Translations under genes and position numbers: made by a program
Part shown: positions 26,309-35,249 of the stretch, one piece after another
How positions within the stretch are numbered: the first letter of the stretch is position 1
How the letters are laid out: each line of letters starts with the position of its first letter
From: an uncultured Anaerolineaceae bacterium
GTDB taxonomy: Bacteria; Chloroflexota; Limnocylindria; Limnocylindrales; CSP1-4
DNA length: 43,501 bases
Direction: 5' to 3'
Assembly (NCBI GenBank): GCA_964385975.1
Contig: CAYLSK010000001.1
Span: forward strand, 1 to 43,501
Notes under the pieces: model-generated
Seen by the model: only the letters and a program-made list of their open reading frames with translations
Database searches by the model: none
Told to the model about the DNA's origin: nothing

Positions 26309-26783
26309 TGCGCACCGCGTGAAGGAAGATGCCCGGGAGCAGCGCGTCCTCCTGGACCTCGATGACCTCGCAGCCCGCAAGCTCGGCCAACACGGGGCCG
26401 GAATCTGGCAGGAACCGCCACAGATCGCCGGGGTAGTCGTGAACGGAGCAGCCGTTGCCACGCGCCGTGATCAGCAGATGCCCGCCGTGTTTGAGGACGC
26501 GCCCCATCTCGGGTAGTGACAGCCAGGGCGCCGTGTCGTGTTCGAGCATCTCCGTGCTCACCACGACATCGAATGAGGCGTCTGCGAACGGCAGTTCGTG
26601 GGCATTCGCCACCTGATCCACACCCGGCCCGTCGCGCATGTCTACCCCGACGTACGGCCCGCTGAACCACTGGCGCACGCTGCCATTCACGTCGAGCGAA
26701 CCGACTTCCAACGTCGAGAGTCCCGCCAGCCCGTCGATCGCCACGGTATCGGCTACCCAGGAGTGAACGGACTCGTGCATCAC
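26298..26783 (-). CDS. class I SAM-dependent methyltransferase (161 aa)
   Basis: LEVGSLDVNG…VGVDM…FDVVVSTEMLEH…LKHGGHLLI. ATGA overlap with the fibre stop. Confidence 0.65.
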   Translation of the reverse strand: MMHESVHSWVADTVAIDGLAGLSTLEVGSLDVNGSVRQWFSGPYVGVDMRDGPGVDQVANAHELPFADASFDVVVSTEMLEHDTAPWLSLPEMGRVLKHGGHLLITARGNGCSVHDYPGDLWRFLPDSGPVLAELAGCEVIEVQEDALLPGIFLHAVRNGR

Positions 26784-29236
26784 GCCATCCGCTGGATGAA
26801 GGCAAGGGCGAAATACGGCTGCGCAGCCGCCATCGAGGCGATCGTCGGTTGCGTGATGCTGTGGTCGCTGAAAGCCGGCTGGGTGATCGCGTGGGCCGAG
26901 GGTTGGGTGACACCGTGGGCGCTGAACGCCGGTTGGGTGATCGAGTGTGCTGAGGGCTGCGTGATCGAGTGGGCGGAGAAAGCCGGCTGGGTGATCGAGT
27001 GAGCCGACACGACCGGCTGGGTCACGGCGTGGGCGGCGATCGCCACGGACGTCGAGAGGCTGTGGCTGGACAGGGCGACGCTCGTGGACAGGCTGTGGTC
27101 GCTGAAGGCGGGCTGGGTGATCGCGTGGGCGCTCACGACCGGTTGGGTGATCGCATGCGCTGAGACCACCGGCTGCGTGAGGGTGTGCGCCGAGACAACG
27201 GGCTGGGTGATCGCGTGGGCGCTCGGCTGAGTAATGGCGTGAGCAGACACGACGGGCTGCGTGAGGGTGTGCGCGGAGACCACGGGTTGAGTCACAGCGT
27301 GGGCGCTCGGCTGAGTGATGGCATGGGCGGAGACGACGGGCTGGGTGAGCGCGTGCGCCGAGACCACGGGTTGAGTCACAGCATGGGCCGATGGTTGGGT
27401 GATGGCGTGGGCGGAGACGACGGGCTGGGTGAGCGCGTGCGCCGAGACCACGGGTTGAGTCACGGCGTGCGCATCGGGTTGGGTGATCGCGTGTGCACTG
27501 ACAACAGGCTGTGTCAACGCGTGGGCGCTCACGACGGGTTGCGTCAATGTATGGGCACTGACGACAGGTTGGGTAAGAGCATGGGCCGACACGACGGGCT
27601 GGGTGAGAGCGTGGGCGGAGACGACGGGCTGGGTGAGCGTGACGGTGGTCGTGACGACCACGACTCGCGTGGTGCCCGATGCCGCGGAGGCAATCGTCGT
27701 AACGCTGGCACCGACATTCGTGGACAGGGTGTGCGCGCTGACCGCTACATTCGTCGAGAGAGCGTGAGCGTCGATCGCTACATTCGTGCTCAGGGCGTGC
27801 GCCGAGATCCCGACGCTGGTCGACAGCGCATGAGCGTCGATGGCCACACTCGTGCTCAGCGAGTGGGTTGAGACGGCTGCGCCCGCGTGCGCCGAGATAC
27901 CGACGTTCGTGGAAAGCGCATGAGCGTCAATCGCGACATTGGTCGAGAGGCTGTGCGTGCTGACAGCGGTTCCGCTATGGGCATCGATTGCGACGCTGGT
28001 CGACAGCGCGTGGGCGTCGATCGCCACATTGGTCGAGAGGCTGTGCGTGCTGACGGCGGCCCCGCTATGGGCGTCAATGGCGACATTGGTCGAGAGGGCG
28101 TGCGCGTCCACCGCGACGTTCGTTGACAACGAGTGGGTGCTGACGGCAGCCCCGCTGTGAGCGTCAATGGCGACATCCGTAGTCAGGGCATGGGCGTCGA
28201 TGCCGACGCTCGTTGACAGAGCGTGCGTGCTGATAGCCGCGTTGGTCGAGAGGGCATGCGCGTCGATGGCGACGGATGTCGAGAGGCTGTGGCTCGATAG
28301 GGCGGGCTGCGTGATCGAGTGATCCGAGAAGGCCGGCTGCGTGATCGAGTGAGCATCCAACGCCACATTGGTGGACAACGCGTGCGAGTCGATGGCGACG
28401 CTCGTGGACAGCGAGTGCGTGGAGACATCGGTACCCGAGTGCGCGTCGAGCGCCACGCTGGTCGAGAGGCTGTGCGCGGAGATGGCCGCGCCGCTGTGCG
28501 CATCGATCGCCACAGATGTCGAAAGGCTGTGGCTGCTGACGGCCGCGCCCGAAGCGGTGTGAGAGTGTGTGATCGAACCGCCGGAGATAGTGAGCGAGCC
28601 TGTCAGGTTCGTCTTGGCGAAACCTGCGTCGTCAGCCGAGGCGCCAACGATGAACATGTTGCGCAGATCGGGACCGGGTGCGTTCGCGGTGCCGTCGCAG
28701 AGCTGCCAGTCCGGGGCAGGGATGGCCGCGATGGTGCCGGACCACATGATGATCCCGCCGATCGGAACGGCTCCGCCACCGGTCAAGTCTTCCCAATCCG
28801 CATCGCCATCGGCGTCGGAGACTTTCGTCAATACTTGGCCCGTTGTGCCACCGTCAGGGATGCCGCTGCCGTCGGCGCCGGGCGGTCCGCTCGGGCCAGG
28901 TCCACCGTTCCCTCCATGTTGCCCAGGCTTACCGTCGGCGCCCTGCTTGGCGAGCAATTTCCACGACACGCCCGGAGGTCGCGCGCCGCTGGACGCTTCG
29001 GTGGCCACATATGAGCTGCCCTGGTATTCAACGACGTCGGGCGGCGCATAGTCTGCCGTTAGCCGCCACGGACCGCGCCAGATGAGACCGGGCTGGCCAT
29101 CCAAGCCATCTTGGCCGGGCTTGCCCTGCGGTCCCTGCTTGCCGGGGGGGCCCGTCGGACCCGGATCACCCTGCGCTCCACGAAGAAGCTCCGCGTGTTC
29201 CTCGGCCACGATCAGCGCCGCGGAGAGCTCATTCAC
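26780..29236 (-). CDS. 818-aa collagen-like / tail-collar-like fibre protein with a long His-initiated repeat array
   Basis: Two Gly-X-Y tracts (GAQGDPGPTGPPGKQGPQGKPGQDGLDGQPG and GADGKPGQHGGNGGPGPSGPPGADG). A collar-type motif GGIIMWSG…P..WQLCDGT…PDLRNMFIVG…GGSITHSHT. Then about 54 short His-led repeats. The GTG start overlaps the portal stop (GTGA 29233-29236). Confidence 0.75.
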   Translation of the reverse strand: MNELSAALIVAEEHAELLRGAQGDPGPTGPPGKQGPQGKPGQDGLDGQPGLIWRGPWRLTADYAPPDVVEYQGSSYVATEASSGARPPGVSWKLLAKQGADGKPGQHGGNGGPGPSGPPGADGSGIPDGGTTGQVLTKVSDADGDADWEDLTGGGAVPIGGIIMWSGTIAAIPAPDWQLCDGTANAPGPDLRNMFIVGASADDAGFAKTNLTGSLTISGGSITHSHTASGAAVSSHSLSTSVAIDAHSGAAISAHSLSTSVALDAHSGTDVSTHSLSTSVAIDSHALSTNVALDAHSITQPAFSDHSITQPALSSHSLSTSVAIDAHALSTNAAISTHALSTSVGIDAHALTTDVAIDAHSGAAVSTHSLSTNVAVDAHALSTNVAIDAHSGAAVSTHSLSTNVAIDAHALSTSVAIDAHSGTAVSTHSLSTNVAIDAHALSTNVGISAHAGAAVSTHSLSTSVAIDAHALSTSVGISAHALSTNVAIDAHALSTNVAVSAHTLSTNVGASVTTIASAASGTTRVVVVTTTVTLTQPVVSAHALTQPVVSAHALTQPVVSAHTLTQPVVSAHALTQPVVSAHAITQPDAHAVTQPVVSAHALTQPVVSAHAITQPSAHAVTQPVVSAHALTQPVVSAHAITQPSAHAVTQPVVSAHTLTQPVVSAHAITQPSAHAITQPVVSAHTLTQPVVSAHAITQPVVSAHAITQPAFSDHSLSTSVALSSHSLSTSVAIAAHAVTQPVVSAHSITQPAFSAHSITQPSAHSITQPAFSAHGVTQPSAHAITQPAFSDHSITQPTIASMAAAQPYFALAFIQRMA
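26840..28545. repeat. in-frame coding tandem repeats of 24, 30 and 33 nt (His-ladder array)
   Basis: Visible both in the DNA and in the translated ORF. The many antisense ORFs in this interval are repeat artefacts. Confidence 0.85.
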
Positions 29237-31455
29237 TCTAGGAGTTCCTCGTGCGTGCCGGTGATCTCGTTGGTCTCCGGGTCGCGATCGATCACGGTTC
29301 GCGTCGGGACATGCTCAACGATCCGAACCGCGCCCTCCGAGATGTGGACCTGAGCCGGTTCGACGGATCGCTCCGGGACGTTGACGGTCACAGCCGGTGA
29401 CGTGATGGCGCCCTGCGCGATCGTGACCGGAGCGCTGTGAACATCGACCTGGACAGCTCCAGGCTCGATCTTGGTGGGGGGGGTGTTCACCTCCACCTGA
29501 ACGGCGCCAGGAGCAATCGTGACGGGTGATGCGACCGTCGTGGACCGGCCCGCCAGTGCCACGAGGAGAGCCGCCTGGTCGCGTTGCACCTGCGCTTGGT
29601 ATCGTTGTTCCTCGGTCATCTCACTGAGCCGGCGGCGGATCGTGTCGCGCGAGACGGCCATTTCGGCCGCCAGCGTGTCGTAGCCAGCCGGCCGCCCGGC
29701 GGCCTCCAGCTCGGCCTTCTTCGCGAGGACCTCCTCCGTCGTCACGATTGGGGCCGGGCCCGCGCCGAGACGGCGAGCCGGCGAATCGACCGACACGGCG
29801 ACCTGACCAGTGCCGACGGGCGCGAACAGAGAGGGGTACAAGAGGACCATGGCGTCGTCGCCTGGGAGGATTGCGCCCTCGATGATCTCGGGCGATAGCG
29901 GGCCGCTGGCCGGCCAGAAACGGCGCGTCGCTCGGTAGTCAGACACGGTCGTTCCGGCAAGCGCGTCGCGGACGATCTCGATGTCCGTCGGCGTGGCCGG
30001 CGTCCAACCTTGACCGATCATCCTGCGCAGCCGGCCGGCGCTGAGGCTGAACTCCCGCGGCGCTGCCGTCCCTGCCGCGGGCAACGTATTACCGGGCGGC
30101 TGGAGCTGGACGCTGACGAGGCCGGTATGGACGAGTCGGGTGACATCACCCGAGCTGACATAGTCCACGACGCTCGCCGGTGTGAAGCCCTCGTTCACCA
30201 GGCGCCCGATCGTCTCCGAGTTCGCCTGCATGACGCTGGCCTGGTCGGTCACGTCGGCCTGGAGGAAGGGCACCGATCGTTGGTCGAACCAGAGTCGCGT
30301 CCCTCCCGTCGGCGCCGGGATGATCGTCTCGAGCGAGCCGCACATGTTCGGCCAGAGGTAGCGCAGTGTGATGTCGCTCGTGCTGCGTTTCGCGGCGCCG
30401 TAGTTCCCAGCGTTCATCGCTGAGCCAGCCATCCCCTCCGAGAACGGGATGATGACCGGGTGCATGCCGACGACCGCGGCCAGCCGCGTCTCCATGGTGC
30501 CGGCGAGGTCCTTGTAGGCCATGTCCTTGAAGTTGGTTCCGACGGGTGCGACGGTCATGCCGCCGCCCAGGTACATCGTCTTGAACGCGTTCGTCGCGCC
30601 CCTGTGCTTCTTCTCGAACTGCTCGAGCCAGCTCTTCGCTTTGGCCTCGTCCCAATTGGGCGGGAACGAGACCGCGAGATTGGGCGTCGCGGCGTTGCGC
30701 ATGAACGCCCGCTTGTAGCTCGTGGATCCGTTGTCCGCGAGGATCTCGGGCAACGCCGCGAGGATCAGCGGCATGCCCCGGTAGCGCGATAGGGGTCCTG
30801 TGTTCGGGTGGAAGTGGGCGACCTCCTCGCGACCGTAGGCGATGACAGCCTTGCCGGACCTCGGCCCTTCGGGCGTGTAGCCGAAGCCGATGATCTCAGC
30901 GTCAGGGTCCTGTGAAAGCTCGATCGGATCGCGCTTCTGCCGCGAGCCGAGCACGATGACCGTCCAGTCCGGCCGGAGCGGCTTGATCCGGTCGACGTTT
31001 CCATAGGGAAGGCTGGGCCCCTTGGGTCTGACCACGCTGGCGGGGCGCCGGACGCCGAACCAGTCGCCTGCGAGATCCGCGTATTGGATCGCCCGGAAGT
31101 TGAGATCGAGCGTCGTCTCGCCAGGCTCCGGATGCTCGAGCGGCGCGAGGTCGGGCGTCCCGAACAGGCCACCCTCGCGACCGCCGAACATCTGCTGAAA
31201 CTGATAGCGCGCCTGGGCGAAGAGCTTCCAACGCGTCTGCAGGGCCGAGAATACGACGCTGCTGCGGCCATAGACCGACGACAGGAACTCGAGCGTTGCC
31301 GGCGGCAGCTCCTCGTCACCGCGCAGCGTCGAGCCGCCGATGAACATCGGTCCGTCGATCGAGGTCATCACGGAGAGCCAATCTCCGAAAGTGAAGTCGC
31401 CCGAGCTTGCAAACCGGGACATGCTCCGGCGCGCCATGACCGCGAGAGGATTCAT
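29233..31455 (-). CDS. portal protein (HK97-family) with about 280-aa C-terminal extension
   Basis: Position after TerL. The first ~450 aa have portal-like length and composition. The extension has an HTH-like segment and short PGAVQV / PVTIA repeats. Confidence 0.75.
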   Translation of the reverse strand: MNPLAVMARRSMSRFASSGDFTFGDWLSVMTSIDGPMFIGGSTLRGDEELPPATLEFLSSVYGRSSVVFSALQTRWKLFAQARYQFQQMFGGREGGLFGTPDLAPLEHPEPGETTLDLNFRAIQYADLAGDWFGVRRPASVVRPKGPSLPYGNVDRIKPLRPDWTVIVLGSRQKRDPIELSQDPDAEIIGFGYTPEGPRSGKAVIAYGREEVAHFHPNTGPLSRYRGMPLILAALPEILADNGSTSYKRAFMRNAATPNLAVSFPPNWDEAKAKSWLEQFEKKHRGATNAFKTMYLGGGMTVAPVGTNFKDMAYKDLAGTMETRLAAVVGMHPVIIPFSEGMAGSAMNAGNYGAAKRSTSDITLRYLWPNMCGSLETIIPAPTGGTRLWFDQRSVPFLQADVTDQASVMQANSETIGRLVNEGFTPASVVDYVSSGDVTRLVHTGLVSVQLQPPGNTLPAAGTAAPREFSLSAGRLRRMIGQGWTPATPTDIEIVRDALAGTTVSDYRATRRFWPASGPLSPEIIEGAILPGDDAMVLLYPSLFAPVGTGQVAVSVDSPARRLGAGPAPIVTTEEVLAKKAELEAAGRPAGYDTLAAEMAVSRDTIRRRLSEMTEEQRYQAQVQRDQAALLVALAGRSTTVASPVTIAPGAVQVEVNTPPTKIEPGAVQVDVHSAPVTIAQGAITSPAVTVNVPERSVEPAQVHISEGAVRIVEHVPTRTVIDRDPETNEITGTHEELLE

Positions 31456-31576
31456 CGGGGCACTCCCAGGCCTACCCAGCCGACCGCGAGAGGATTCATC
31501 GGGGCACTCCCAGGCCTACCCAGCCGACCGCGAGAGGATTCATCGGGGCACTCCCAGGCCGACCCAGCCGACCGCG
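31437..31576. repeat. 44-bp direct repeat x3 plus an 8-bp partial fourth copy, spanning the portal start
   Basis: Units at 31437-31480 and 31481-31524 are identical. The unit at 31525-31568 has one mismatch. gaccgcga repeats again at 31569-31576. Confidence 0.9.
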
Positions 31577-31740
31577 ACGACGGCCAGACCGGCCAATACA
31601 AGGGCCGCAGGCACGAAGACCAGGCCGACCCCAATGACGACGAGCGCAGCGCCGGCGACGATCAGCGCGGTATAGGCGGTCGATGGTCGACGGATGCGCC
31701 GGAGGAACGGGCGGCGAGGCGTGCGGGCGGTCGTGACCAT
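31540..31740 (-). CDS. 66-aa two-TM membrane protein between TerL and portal
   Basis: Basic N-terminus followed by ALIVAGAALVVIGVGLVFVPAALVLAGLAVVAVGWVGLG. TGATG overlap with the TerL stop. Confidence 0.55.
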   Translation of the reverse strand: MVTTARTPRRPFLRRIRRPSTAYTALIVAGAALVVIGVGLVFVPAALVLAGLAVVAVGWVGLGVPR

Positions 31741-33509
31741 CAGTCGTCTCCACCGAAGAAGATGAACGGCTCGGCCATCGGCTCTTCGGGCTCGACCTCC
31801 GGTCCATTCGCCTCCGCGAACAATGCGTCACACCAGGCAGCGACGCCGTCGATGCGCTCGGAACTCTTCTCCTTCGAGGGCTTGATGTTGCCGGCGGCAT
31901 CCTCGTCCGCGGCGGCGTTCGCAACCATCCAGGCCAGGACCGGGTTGCCGTCGTAGTGGACGAGCCCCCCGGCGATGTCCGCCTCGAGCCGTTTCGCCGG
32001 TGCGGACAGCGAGGCGTAGCCCTGGCCGACCTCGACCACCTCGACGCCCTCGGACTGCAGCGCAGGCGTTAGCCAGGCCGTGTTCCAGCGATCGATCCCG
32101 ACACTCCAGATGTGCGCGCCCAGCGAGACGACATCAGCGACGACCTTCTCCTGGTCGACGCGGTTCCCCCCGGTCAATGTGATCCAGTCGTCGCGGGCCC
32201 AGACATCGTAGGGAACGTGGTCACGCTTGACCCGCGCCGGCATGTTCGCTGCGGGCAGCCAGAAGCGCGCCACGAGATCGTAGCATCGGCCGCCATGACC
32301 CTCGCCGGCGCAGGCGTCACGGTCGACCTTGAGGACGAAGGCGGTCAGGTCCATCGTCGACGATAGATCGAGCCCGCCCCAGCCCTTGCGGCCGGCGAGC
32401 TCGGCGGGCCCGCCGGCACAGGCGACGAACGTCACGACATCGAGCCACTTGCCCGAGCCCTCGGTCCAGATGCAGAAGCACATCCGCTTGACGACGTTCT
32501 GCTGGGCGGGCTTGCCGAGCGCCTCGCGGACCATCTCGCGTAGATAACGCGTCGACACCGAAACGCCGAGGTTCGGGTTGGCCTTGAGCCAGACGGATTC
32601 GTCTGTCCACTGGTCGCAATCGGGGCAGCCGTCGACCGGCGCCCCACCGCGGCGGTGCTCCTCGCAGGCATCGAGCCCGGCGACGAACGGGAACCAGGAG
32701 TCGTCCTGGCGGACACCCTCGAGGATTTCGATGCTGTACTGGTGGTCGGCCCAGCACACCGAGTGGCGATCGAACCCGCTGTTGGTGATCCGGAAGATCA
32801 GCGCGTCGCGCCAGCCCTTCGTGCCGGCCCGCATCGCGTCGATGACCTCGGACGACGGATGAGCGTGCTCTTCGTCGATGATGGCGATGTAGACGCGCTT
32901 ACCGTGGAGGTTCTTGGCCTCCGAGCTGACGTAGGTGAACGAGGATCCCTTCGGCCCGCTGAGCGAGTGCGCGAACATCCGGATCCGCTCGCGCAGCGGG
33001 CTCGACTTCGCGACCATGAGCCGCGCGTCGTTCCAGGCGATCGAGCTTTGGTCGCGACCTGCGGCCGCGCTGTAGATCTGGGCGCCGGAGCGGCCCTCGC
33101 CGACCATCCCGTACAGCCCGATGCCGGCGGCCATCGGCGTCTTGCCCGAGCCCTTCGCCGTCTCGGTGTAGGCGTTCCGGATCAGCCGGACATCGACGCC
33201 ATCTTCGTCGCGTGTGAACCAGCCGAACGTCGAGCCAACGATGAAGGCCTCCCAGCCCTGGAGCACGAACGGCTTACCCTCGAACTCGCCCTCGTGCAGT
33301 CGGAGGTAGCTAAAGAACCGAATCGCGCGACCGCCGGCCGCGGCATCGAACCAGATGTCCTCGCGCTCGAGCCAGCGTTCATGACGCTCGCACAGGAGGC
33401 GGACGTAGCGATTGGCGACGATCCGACCCGACAGGACGTCGGCAGCATAGGCATGGACAACGTCTGCCGCGATCTCATCGGCTGAACGGTCAAGCGCGGC
33501 GACGGCCAA
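31740..33509 (-). CDS. terL: terminase large subunit (Terminase_1-like)
   Basis: Walker A TAKGSGKTPMAAG, an IIDEEH-type Walker B, and a C-terminal nuclease half. 589 aa. Confidence 0.85.
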   Translation of the reverse strand: MAVAALDRSADEIAADVVHAYAADVLSGRIVANRYVRLLCERHERWLEREDIWFDAAAGGRAIRFFSYLRLHEGEFEGKPFVLQGWEAFIVGSTFGWFTRDEDGVDVRLIRNAYTETAKGSGKTPMAAGIGLYGMVGEGRSGAQIYSAAAGRDQSSIAWNDARLMVAKSSPLRERIRMFAHSLSGPKGSSFTYVSSEAKNLHGKRVYIAIIDEEHAHPSSEVIDAMRAGTKGWRDALIFRITNSGFDRHSVCWADHQYSIEILEGVRQDDSWFPFVAGLDACEEHRRGGAPVDGCPDCDQWTDESVWLKANPNLGVSVSTRYLREMVREALGKPAQQNVVKRMCFCIWTEGSGKWLDVVTFVACAGGPAELAGRKGWGGLDLSSTMDLTAFVLKVDRDACAGEGHGGRCYDLVARFWLPAANMPARVKRDHVPYDVWARDDWITLTGGNRVDQEKVVADVVSLGAHIWSVGIDRWNTAWLTPALQSEGVEVVEVGQGYASLSAPAKRLEADIAGGLVHYDGNPVLAWMVANAAADEDAAGNIKPSKEKSSERIDGVAAWCDALFAEANGPEVEPEEPMAEPFIFFGGDD

Positions 33510-33963
33510 AGAACTCCTCCTCCATCGGATCGGCGGTGGGCGGCGTGCCGGTCAATTCGGCGCGCGATCCCGGCGTCAGGCCAAGCTCCCGGGCGTAGGC
33601 GCGCATCAGGTCAGCGTTCGCTTGGACGATCATGTTCAGCGGGTTGCGCACGAGCTCACCGACGCGGGCGCCGCGGATCAGCGGCCCTGCCTGGTGCAGC
33701 CGTTCGGCCGCGTATTCATACCTCGCGACCGCCTCGCAGTAGACCCGCAGCGCGTCGCTGTCGAGTGCGGTGATGACGCCGGTGTCGCCGAAGTCGCGCA
33801 GGATCCGTCGCCAAATCTTTCGAGCGGGCTCAGCCATCGTGGCGGGCATCCGCGGCTGGTTCTGCTTCGGTTTCGGTTCATTGAGATTGAGCCGCTCGGC
33901 CCGCGTCTCGCCATGCAGCAGCTTGAGCGCGGTCGGCATCTTCGAGGGCCCGCGCTTACCCAC
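33490..33963 (-). CDS. terS: terminase small subunit (P27-family-like)
   Basis: N-terminus GKRGPSKMPTALKLLHGETRAERLN matches the typical P27 opening. GTG 33963 lies 5 nt after the upstream stop. An alternative ATG is at 33939. Confidence 0.65.
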   Translation of the reverse strand: MGKRGPSKMPTALKLLHGETRAERLNLNEPKPKQNQPRMPATMAEPARKIWRRILRDFGDTGVITALDSDALRVYCEAVARYEYAAERLHQAGPLIRGARVGELVRNPLNMIVQANADLMRAYARELGLTPGSRAELTGTPPTADPMEEEFFGRRRA

Positions 33964-35249
33964 GCACCGCCTCCCGGCCCGTGAATCGAGCCCAGCGCTC
34001 GATGGCGATCTGAGCGTAGCGCGGGTCGATCTCGATGGCGTAGCAGCGACGGCCGAGCTGCTCGGCTGCGATGAGCGTGGTGCCAGATCCCAGGAACGGG
34101 TCATAAACGTCGCCCGCGTGGTTGCGGAGCGGGGGCTCGAAGAGGGCGACGGGTTTCTGTGCCGGATGGTCGAGCTTCTCCTCGGTCGAGCCGCCCATGA
34201 TCATCTTGGGGCTGGGCGCCCGCCAGACCGTGCTCTGGTCGCGGTCGCCCGTATAGAGGTTGGGCATCCCGGGCTTGCGGACCGCCCAGCACGGCTCGTG
34301 GCCCCAGTGGTACCAGGACCGGCCCATCGCGAAGAGGCCCTTGTCCCAGATCACCTGGCTCACGATCTCGAAGCCGATCCGCACGAGGCCCTCGGCCACG
34401 GCAGCGGCATGGACGCCGGCGTGCCAGACATAGCCCACCTCGATGCTAGGCACGAGTTCGAAGGCCTCCGACCAGTCGACACGCGTGTCGCCTGAAAGGG
34501 TGGTGTTGCGGTGACCCTGGATCCGCATGTACGGCCGCTCGGCCGTAGAGCGAACGCCACGGCTGGATGCGCGGTCCATGTTTCCGTTGTAAATGCCGTC
34601 CCGCCAGGTCGGATCGAGCGCTACCCCGTAGGGCGGGTCCGTCGCGAGGATCCTGGGTGCCCCCCCCCCCGAGCACACGAGCTACGTCCGCCGGGTTGGT
34701 GGCATCACCGACCAAGAGTCGGTGGTCACCGAGGATCCATAATTCGTTGGCCCGCACGTACGGCTCGGCGGGCACCTCCGGGACCTCGTCCGGGTCGGTC
34801 AGGCCAGCTTTCGGGCCACCCAGATCGGCGAGCAGCCGGCGCAGGCCGGCATCGTCGACCGTGACGTCGGCGAGCAGCGCATCGAGCGCGGCCTGATTGG
34901 TCTCGGCCATGGCCGCGAGCGGATCAAGGGTCGCCAGGACGAGGGCTTCCTCCTCGGGCGAGAGGTCGACGTACAGGACCGGGACGGTCGCTTCGTGCCG
35001 CTCGAGCGCCTCCTCAACCCTCGCATGGCCATCGACGAGGTTGCCTGTCTGGACGTTGACGATGACTTGCTGGACCCAGCCCACGGTCTCGAGCGAACCC
35101 GCGAGGGCGCGGCGCTGGCCTCGTCCGTGGACGCGCCAGTTGCGCGGGTTTGCCTGGATCGACGCCGGGTCGACGGCCTCGGACCGGACGATCCGGCTGC
35201 GTAGGCCAGTGACCGGCGCCAAGGGGGGTGCTGCCGCCTTCGCCATCAT
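33956..35249 (-). pseudogene. ParB-like N-terminal domain fused to a beta-class N6/N4 DNA methyltransferase, split by a frameshift in a G11 tract
   Basis: Frame A (34446..35249) carries the ParB-N motifs and ends …WILGDHRLLVGDATNPADVARVLGGGG. Frame B (33956..34678) continues GGGAPRILATDPPYGV…DPFLGSGTT. Removing one G gives one 430-aa ORF. Confidence 0.7.
34660..34670. repeat. homopolymer C11 (G11 on the coding strand)
   Basis: Counted directly: position 34660 plus the ten C at 34661-34670. Confidence 0.9.

Follow-up and report, generated by a model that had tools for sequence, protein, structure and literature searches.

A triplicated stop/start overlap at the start of a phage portal gene is probably a tolerated tandem duplication private to its lineage

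The start of a portal gene in a phage packaging and head operon raises a simple question: why is the overlap between the stop codon of the preceding gene and the portal start codon present three times? The window, by which we mean the whole 43,501-nt stretch of DNA that was analysed, contains one tandem array at this position, reported by TRF with a period of 44, 3.2 copies, a 98% match and a score of 273. The exact 44-bp unit stands at 31438 and at 31482, and a third unit at 31526 carries one mismatch (G for T at 31561), which amounts to 1 mismatch per 132 nt across the three head-to-tail units. The array is exactly periodic through 123 nt, the longest perfect repeat within it measures 79 nt, and 0 matches to the array were found in 100 dinucleotide shuffles of the window. 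The three tandem units with a single mismatch that the initial annotation had described are thus there, displaced by 1 nt from the noted 31437-31576.

On the minus strand, every unit reads GWVGLGVPR-TGA overlapping ATG-AAT-CCT-CTC-GCG-GTC, that is, the last 9 codons of the gene for a short transmembrane (TM) protein followed by the first 6 of the portal gene. The end of the TM ORF falls inside copy 1, and the ATGs at 31543 and 31499 each begin MNPLAVGWVGLGVPR, a run of 15 sense codons. With a unit length of 3n+2, every added ATG shares its frame with the TGA that follows. Reading this strand gives the chain TM-ATGA-mini1-ATGA-mini2-ATGA-portal, as the initial annotation had it: from the membrane protein through two identical 15-codon ORFs to the portal, with ATGA at each step. 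The neighbouring junctions are TerL-TGATG-TM and portal-GTGA-fibre. The junction therefore shows the arrangement expected of a pair coupled by termination and reinitiation, namely co-directional ORFs with an NTGA or TGATG overlap. The coordinates of all features are collected in Table 1.

Table 1. Features of the triplicated junction (window coordinates)
Feature	Position	Strand	Basis or remark
Large terminase (TerL) gene	31740..33509	-	Pfam TerL_ATPase, TerL_nuclease; PHROG 9 at 4.8e-135
TM protein, 66 aa, basic N-terminus, hydrophobic, two predicted TM helices	31540..31740	-	ORF; homologues in related phages
Relay mini-ORF 1, MNPLAVGWVGLGVPR + TGA	31496..31543	-	ATG overlaps TM stop, TGA overlaps next ATG
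Relay mini-ORF 2, sequence identical to mini-ORF 1	31452..31499	-	TGA overlaps portal ATG
Portal gene, 740 aa	29233..31455	-	Pfam Phage_portal PF04860 at 2e-19; PHROG 12 and 2662; start at ATGA of copy 3
Tandem array, three 44-bp units + 8-nt boundary repeat	31438..31577	-	TRF, exact and 1-mismatch matches; same array in JGI contig L006
Array units, copies 1, 2, 3 in coding-strand order	31526-31569, 31482-31525, 31438-31481	-	
Upstream copy of 8-nt microhomology TCGCGGTC (coding strand)	31570..31577	-	Sequence match
Copy-distinguishing base	31517 (copy 2), 31473 (copy 3): A, codon GTA; 31561 (copy 1): C, codon GTC	- (coding strand)	
GGGAG Shine-Dalgarno-like motif, 7 nt 5' of portal ATG	31463..31467	-	Duplex energy
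Identical GGGAG motifs before mini-ORF ATGs	31507-31511 and 31551-31555	-	Duplex energy

This reading has a practical side. The array accounts for the three nested ORFs with the ending GWVGLGVPR, which are spurious; the initial annotation had pointed them out, and they are present in the ORF list. It also fixes the portal start at the overlapped ATG at 31455, a start that is supported because the portals of related phages begin directly at an ATGA or GTGA overlap, with the N-termini MN(N)PLAVMARRSM, MNPIQVMARRSM, MSNPLAVMARRTM or VNALDVIARRAV. Readthrough or frameshifting that would join the TM protein to the portal was rejected: the two genes share a frame, yet a TGA and a TAG intervene, the latter (31516-31518) created by the A at 31517 in copy 2.

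Is the copy number real? The count of three rests on assemblies, possibly of one habitat or even one sample. The JGI contig Ga0136847_10290939 (L006) contains an identical 3-copy array (GTC, GTA, GTA). L006 departs from the window at 34058, and L003, another JGI contig, does so at other sites, so that a second assembly or genotype shows the array. In addition, a k=31 Logan contig from SRR6155509 breaks off precisely at the final 31-mer with the copy-1-specific C, as is expected if the GTA copies also feed that node. One alternative is that the duplication is real while the number of units is not three (more, for example), or is heterogeneous and was collapsed by the assemblers. The 79-nt internal repeat means that assemblers at k <= 79 see a loop, and the MAG is fragmented, with 322 contigs. 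Nevertheless, we regard this as unlikely: the same three copies occur in two different assemblies, two GTA-type units 44 nt apart need at least 3 units, and no unit-to-unit joint can arise when there is only one copy and 8 nt of homology. Moreover, the JGI contigs overlap by 86 nt (window 31205-31290), which suggests a final k of 87; this exceeds 79, and the array would then be unambiguous. Judging from the assemblies, the three-copy array is most likely not an artefact.

To place the array, the junction was compared with that of related phages. The lineages compared were L004, L005, L008 (= L010), L012, L013-L020 (one phage in 8 runs) and L021, in each of which a TM homologue of 53-66 aa lies between TerL and portal. 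In all seven related lineages the junction occurs once, with stop and start overlapping by 4 nt (six ATGA, one GTGA), as the initial annotation had expected of related phages. Identity to these relatives is about 75% for the TM protein and 55-80% for the portal, and GWVGLGV and MNPLAV, the TM-protein and portal parts of the unit, are conserved in them. In the sequences compared, the array is private to this phage. None of the relatives found is closer than about 75-80%. A search with the 66-aa protein gave just two homologues, with 76% and 74% identity, and 60 genomes related to the MAG yielded one 39%-identical prophage portal, from the same genus, without the TM gene. The phage GenBank collection gave no match by megablast with 5 kb around the junction, GTDB genome contigs, searched with the portal both singly and in an alignment, gave no relatives, and exact-protein look-ups of portal and TerL returned no record.

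The boundaries of the array are informative about its origin. Replication slippage between short direct repeats is known to produce tandem duplications and VNTR expansion. Here, TCGCGGTC closes every unit (31526-31533, 31482-31489 and 31438-31445), and a match search found GACCGCGA again at 31570. This is the 8-nt repeat that the initial annotation had placed after the third copy; it is real, and its presence on both sides of the unit is specific to the lineage of the window; in the relatives the two sites differ from each other, L013 having TCGCGGTC upstream only and L021 downstream only. Such a distribution fits an origin by microhomology or slippage. The array thus combines near-identical head-to-tail copies, bounds formed by a short direct repeat and single-copy junctions in the seven related lineages, as is characteristic of slippage duplications. 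The copy-distinguishing valine codon suggests a time order. In the relatives this codon is GTC or GTT and never GTA, and in seven phage genes GTA makes up 2.2% of the valine codons and GTC 68%. With GTC in copy 1 and GTA in copies 2 and 3, at least three events are needed.

We infer the following sequence of events. The ancestor would have had a single TM-stop/portal-start overlap (ATGA), one junction as in all relatives. In this lineage, TCGCGGTC may have come to stand 44 nt apart, flanking the junction, and replication slippage or microhomology-mediated recombination between its copies could then have doubled the intervening 44 bp. A synonymous C>A substitution (GTC>GTA) would then have arisen in one copy, followed by a further duplication of the copy that carried it. 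Overall, we consider it likely that the array is a real, lineage-private tandem duplication that subsequently expanded, and not an evolved device. The recent slippage duplication that the initial annotation had offered as one explanation gains support from the single-copy relatives and the lineage-specific microhomology.

Why was such a duplication tolerated? Most likely, the array is a harmless slippage duplication, tolerated since the extra copies read as tiny genes that could pass ribosomes on to the portal gene. Of 14 pairs tested, 13 showed tight translational coupling through an ATGA overlap (Huber et al. 2019, PMC6728339). Coupling was almost abolished by a gap of about 20 nt (Huber et al. 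2023, PMC10666635), and the last 15 nt of the upstream gene suffice for reinitiation (PMC10666635). The unit holds a complete initiation module, consisting of the GGGAG motif, the ATG and the overlapping TGA, and because of this both genes remain intact and the portal ATG retains 52 nt of unaltered upstream context. The added DNA forms two 15-codon relay ORFs instead of an 85-nt untranslated gap, and ribosomes leaving the TM gene could still reach the portal by termination and reinitiation. Near-neutrality is our assumption here, and the 3n+2 unit length, with a prior of one in three, does not on its own demonstrate selection.

Conversely, the array might have been selected as a relay, an attenuator or a rheostat of variable copy number, with serial termination-reinitiation adjusting the dose of portal against terminase and TM protein. 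A stop/start overlap at every junction from TerL through TM and portal to fibre suggests that stoichiometric coupling matters in this module, and both genes are intact at any copy number. The array and its internal substitution are also common to two slightly different genotypes or assemblies, which argues against an accident of one generation. Against selection, however, the array is not conserved, with all 7 relative lineages single-copy, and the near-identity of its units indicates that it is young. Downward tuning of the portal dosage, the second explanation that the initial annotation had offered, finds no support here. Scored against a generic anti-SD, each of the three starts has an SD duplex energy of -6.8 kcal/mol; the background is -3.7 +/- 2.6, with -7.0 reached by about 10% of random sites. 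With its own SD in each unit, new ribosomes can join at every step, so the net effect on portal flux may be up, down or nil. We found no RNA structure in the array, which folds worse than its shuffles (z = +2.0), no match to Rfam at E <= 1 and no promoter-like site; the sole terminator-like match falls beyond the array, at chance level. The effect of the array on portal output is probably small, in either direction. Being neither conserved nor structured as RNA, the array shows no sign of an evolved function, and selection for portal dosage is improbable.

Another array in the same MAG points the same way. In C250, a 26-bp unit present twice forms a 9-codon relay between frames of 444 and 531 codons. 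Like the portal array, it is a local junction duplication forming a relay mini-ORF; C250 is chromosomal and at an unrelated junction, whereas the portal array lies in a phage operon. This argues for a mutational class rather than an adaptation specific to the portal. A broader version of the adaptive idea makes the array a contingency locus, a heritable rheostat prone to slippage, in which the number of 44-bp units would alter portal:terminase:TM-protein translation with the genes unbroken; more generally, only 3n+2 duplications would survive, because the link in translation between the portal and the gene before it would be essential. The 3n+2 rule is supported here only in that all four relay-forming arrays found in the MAG (4 of 4) are 3n+2. 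A global 3n+2 excess among the tandem arrays of the MAG was not seen (period mod 3: 107, 22, 21). We hold this broader version to be improbable.

The last alternative is a mobile repeat of the MIRU type, directed at start codons and bringing its own relay ORF. It would match the functional layout of MIRUs (PMC12548453) and is effectively refuted, as the unit is built from the conserved ends of the local genes, rather than being foreign to them, and occupies a single locus, 31438-31577 of the window, with no further copy in the 2.79-Mb MAG and, for the exact unit core, 0 matches in IMG/VR and the JGI metagenome collection outside the window's own sample.

The tolerated tandem duplication that we favour reveals no new system; it is ordinary but neat. 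It provides a clean natural example of how duplication of a translationally coupled junction may do no harm, with SD, start and stop carried along, and its units suggest a natural series of 1, 2 and 3 for following the passage of ribosomes along successive ATGA overlaps. As in slipped-strand or VNTR expansion, an 8-nt direct repeat forms the bounds, the copies are nearly identical and a first duplication was probably followed by expansion. There is no mechanistic difference from slipped-strand duplication in general; what is particular here is that the endpoints enclose a stop/start overlap, the length is 3n+2 and no gene is disrupted. The junction also resembles the ATGA and TGATG coupled pairs studied before (PMC6728339, PMC10666635) in being co-directional, with a 4-nt or 1-nt overlap and an SD inside the upstream gene, and this overlap state is ancestral for the junction and for all neighbouring junctions in the module. 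By contrast with the constructs of Huber et al., it forms a chain of three identical overlaps spaced by 15-codon ORFs; such chains are absent from their constructs, and coupling along this one is predicted.

Among described systems, the MIRU / MIRU-VNTR minisatellites of mycobacteria come closest; in them, a tandem unit at a start codon contains an internal ORF with a -4 overlap (review PMC12548453). In both cases, units of tens of bp stand exactly at a gene start within an operon, copy number can vary, and a short ORF inside every unit ends in a 4-nt overlap with the start that follows; in layout, the two 15-codon ORFs with their ATGA overlaps have the -4 nt coupling to the downstream gene that marks a MIRU. 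Translational coupling is thought to bridge the extra DNA of MIRUs almost harmlessly (PMC12548453), and the same logic would apply here. MIRUs, however, are a dispersed and apparently mobile family at many loci, whereas the present unit is a copy of the local junction made in situ, unique in its genome and situated in the morphogenesis operon of a phage with an uncultured host.

The junction between the 66-aa membrane protein and the portal contains a single tandem array. Tandem Repeats Finder (TRF) located it at 31438-31577 of the window with a period of 44, 3.2 copies, a 98% match and a score of 273. The unit, GACCGCGAGAGGATTCATCGGGGCACTCCCAGGCCTACCCAGCC, is found exactly at 31438 and 31482, and again at 31526 with one mismatch (G for T at 31561); its initial 8 nt, GACCGCGA, recur at 31570. 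No match to the unit appeared in any of the 100 dinucleotide-preserving shuffles of the window. The initial annotation had described a 44-bp triplication at the membrane-protein stop and portal start, and both TRF and direct matches confirmed it, its coordinates being only 1 base off.

On the coding strand, each unit reads GGC TGG GT(C/A) GGC CTG GGA GTG CCC CGA TGA, overlapping ATG AAT CCT CTC GCG GTC. The TGA of copy 1, the first in coding order, is the stop of the membrane protein (31540-31542). Because 44 = 3n+2, an ATG at p is in frame with a TGA at p+45, and the relay chain closes through two mini-ORFs, each a chimera of portal codons 1-6 and the final nine codons of the membrane protein. 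GGGAG lies 7 nt 5' of each ATG, identical at every unit, and its duplex with a generic anti-Shine-Dalgarno (anti-SD) sequence had an energy of -6.8 kcal/mol at each ATG (background -3.7 +/- 2.6). The context of the 52 nt upstream of the portal ATG is unchanged.

Features of the packaging module and of the relay arrays (window coordinates unless a contig of the same MAG is named)
Feature	Position	Strand	Remarks
Small terminase	33490-34104	minus	Pfam + PHROGs
Large terminase (TerL)	31740-33509	minus	Pfam + PHROGs
66-aa hydrophobic membrane protein	31540-31740	minus	between TerL and portal
Mini-ORF 1, MNPLAVGWVGLGVPR, 15 sense codons	ATG at 31543	minus	TGA overlaps ATG at 31499
Mini-ORF 2, identical sequence, 15 codons	ATG at 31499	minus	TGA overlaps portal ATG at 31455
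Portal, 740 aa	29233-31455	minus	Pfam + PHROGs
818-aa collagen-repeat fibre-like protein	26780-29236	minus	Pfam + PHROGs
26-bp (3n+2) unit x2	C250:1588-1639	minus	100% identity; cleanest other relay case
23-bp (3n+2) tandem array	C75:8168-8229		ATGA/GTGA relay chain
23-bp (3n+2) tandem array	C321:913-954		ATGA/GTGA relay chain

Stop/start overlaps chain the whole module from TerL through the membrane protein and portal to the fibre protein (29233-33509), with TGATG at the TerL/membrane-protein junction, ATGA within the array and GTGA at the portal/fibre junction. The chained overlaps suggest coupled translation of all four proteins as a single unit. The 3' end of the portal gene (29233-29620) encodes a C-terminal extension of ~130 aa, which is missing from the 610-aa portal of the related phage L004.

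Portal-based searches and look-ups with the small membrane protein yielded seven distinct lineages having the junction. These included L004 from IMG/VR (portal 79-80% identical), L005 (54-55%), L008, which is the same as L010 (68-75%), L012 (72%), a single phage recovered from eight Logan runs (L013-L020; membrane protein 76% identical) and L021 (membrane protein 74% identical). As had been expected of related phages, the junction is single-copy in all seven, the stop and the start sharing 4 nt (ATGA in six, GTGA in L012). Judged from these junctions, this phage alone among the compared lineages has the triplication, which is a derived state. The portal N-termini of the relatives, MN(N)PLAVMARRSM, MNPIQVMARRSM, MSNPLAVMARRTM or VNALDVIARRAV, lie at the overlap; the portal thus truly starts at the overlapped ATG, and for the window 31455 is correct. 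All seven lineages encode a protein of 53-66 aa between TerL and portal, with a basic N-terminus, two hydrophobic helices and always a stop/start overlap with both neighbours. This small protein, 66 aa long in the window, belongs to no Pfam or PHROG family. In a prophage of another genome of the same genus (portal 39% identical), this gene is absent and TerL directly overlaps the portal.

Indirect evidence from assemblies that the array is real, rather than an assembly artefact, is good. The identical array, with its distinguishing valine codons in the order GTC-GTA-GTA, is present in the JGI assembly of metagenome 3300010391 (contig Ga0136847_10290939, L006). Since L006 differs from the window at 34058, and the adjoining JGI contig L003 differs at more sites, L006 is not the same contig reported twice. 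A Logan k=31 contig (L007, SRR6155509) matches the window at 100% identity along 2710 nt and terminates exactly at the final 31-mer holding the copy-1-specific C, where a de Bruijn graph splits if GTA-type units also enter the shared sequence. A unit-to-unit joint cannot come from one copy that has no more than 8 nt of homology, and two GTA units 44 nt apart imply at least three units. The 86-nt overlap between L003 and L006 (31205-31290) suggests a final JGI k of 87; at this length, which is above the 79 nt of the longest exact repeat inside the array, the assembly of the array would be unambiguous. There may be more than three units, or a heterogeneous copy number in the population. L003 (IMGVR_UViG_3300010391_001538), a contig of the same phage, differs from the window at ~90 positions, nearly all in the repetitive fibre gene (in the region 27200-27800); the remainder of the 4-kb comparison has only 2 mismatches. 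Either the fibre repeats are genuinely hypervariable between genotypes, or one of the two assemblies has mis-assembled them.

The array had been proposed to be a recent slippage duplication, which is supported by the single-copy relatives and by an 8-nt repeat. On the coding strand, TCGCGGTC lies 5' of copy 1 and at the end of every unit. In the relatives, the two corresponding sites are unlike each other: L013 has TCGCGGTC upstream and TCGCCGTG downstream, and L021 has the reverse arrangement, so that the 8-nt direct repeat 44 nt apart existed only in this lineage. Short direct repeats of this kind are the classical starting point for slippage or for duplication through microhomology, and such a mechanism probably produced this array. 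The distinguishing valine codon of copy 1 is GTC, and that of copies 2 and 3 is GTA; the relatives have GTC or GTT at this site, never GTA. Over seven genes of this phage (GC3 = 0.85), GTA accounts for 2.2% and GTC for 68% of valine codons. The simplest history that we infer comprises at least three events: a first duplication of the 44-bp junction unit, a C>A change (GTC to GTA) in the distal copy, and one more duplication of the GTA copy. With at least three events, the array would have lasted for some time. Three units place the membrane-protein gene and the portal in one frame, and the C>A creates a TAG in this frame in copy 2 (31516-31518, minus), so readthrough of the membrane-protein TGA cannot yield a fusion with the portal. 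This TAG is probably a coincidence.

ATGA overlaps gave tight translational coupling in 13 of 14 tested pairs (PMC6728339), an intergenic gap of ~20 nt almost abolished coupling, and the final 15 nt of the upstream gene suffice for reinitiation (PMC10666635). On these figures, 85 nt of untranslated spacer would be expected to break the coupling of the portal to the genes upstream of it; the two relay ORFs could sustain ribosome hand-over to it. We modelled portal flux with reinitiation efficiency f, flux T out of the membrane-protein gene and de novo initiation d, which gives f·T + d for one unit and f^3·T + d(1 + f + f^2) for three. Under this model, portal flux with three units may be higher than, lower than or equal to that with one. 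As each unit has its own SD, the anatomy does not imply downward tuning of portal dosage, and this suggestion of the initial annotation is unsupported. Folding of the array RNA was no stronger than that of shuffled sequences (z = +2.0), and Rfam gave no match. The array lacks a promoter-like signal, and nothing resembling a terminator exceeds chance. There is no indication of selection for the array.

Across the whole MAG, TRF (period >= 11, >= 1.9 copies, >= 85% match) returned 150 arrays. NTGA relay chains occurred in four, all with a period of 3n+2, and a global 3n+2 excess was absent (107, 22 and 21 arrays by period mod 3). The C250 unit duplicates the final seven codons, ATGA and 2 nt, and its 9-codon relay ORF joins frames of 444 and 531 codons (...LRAAGRLPGDR* ATGA MTGRLPGDR* ATGA MTPRADALD...). 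The C75 and C321 arrays precede ORFs of 167 and 202 codons and may be leader-region duplications, because the upstream open frames span only 24-26 codons.

Among known systems, MIRUs are apparently mobile, insert at start codons and carry an internal ORF coupled to the gene at -4 nt (PMC12548453), with insertion occurring 'with minimal impact on expression' (PMC12548453). By analogy, the array would work in the manner of a MIRU. However, MIRUs are dispersed and the array is not, and its unit is composed of local gene ends; on these two defining features, we rejected a MIRU identity. The array is a local VNTR at a coupled junction, a known kind rather than a new system, which is useful for annotation and offers a natural test series of one, two and three units.
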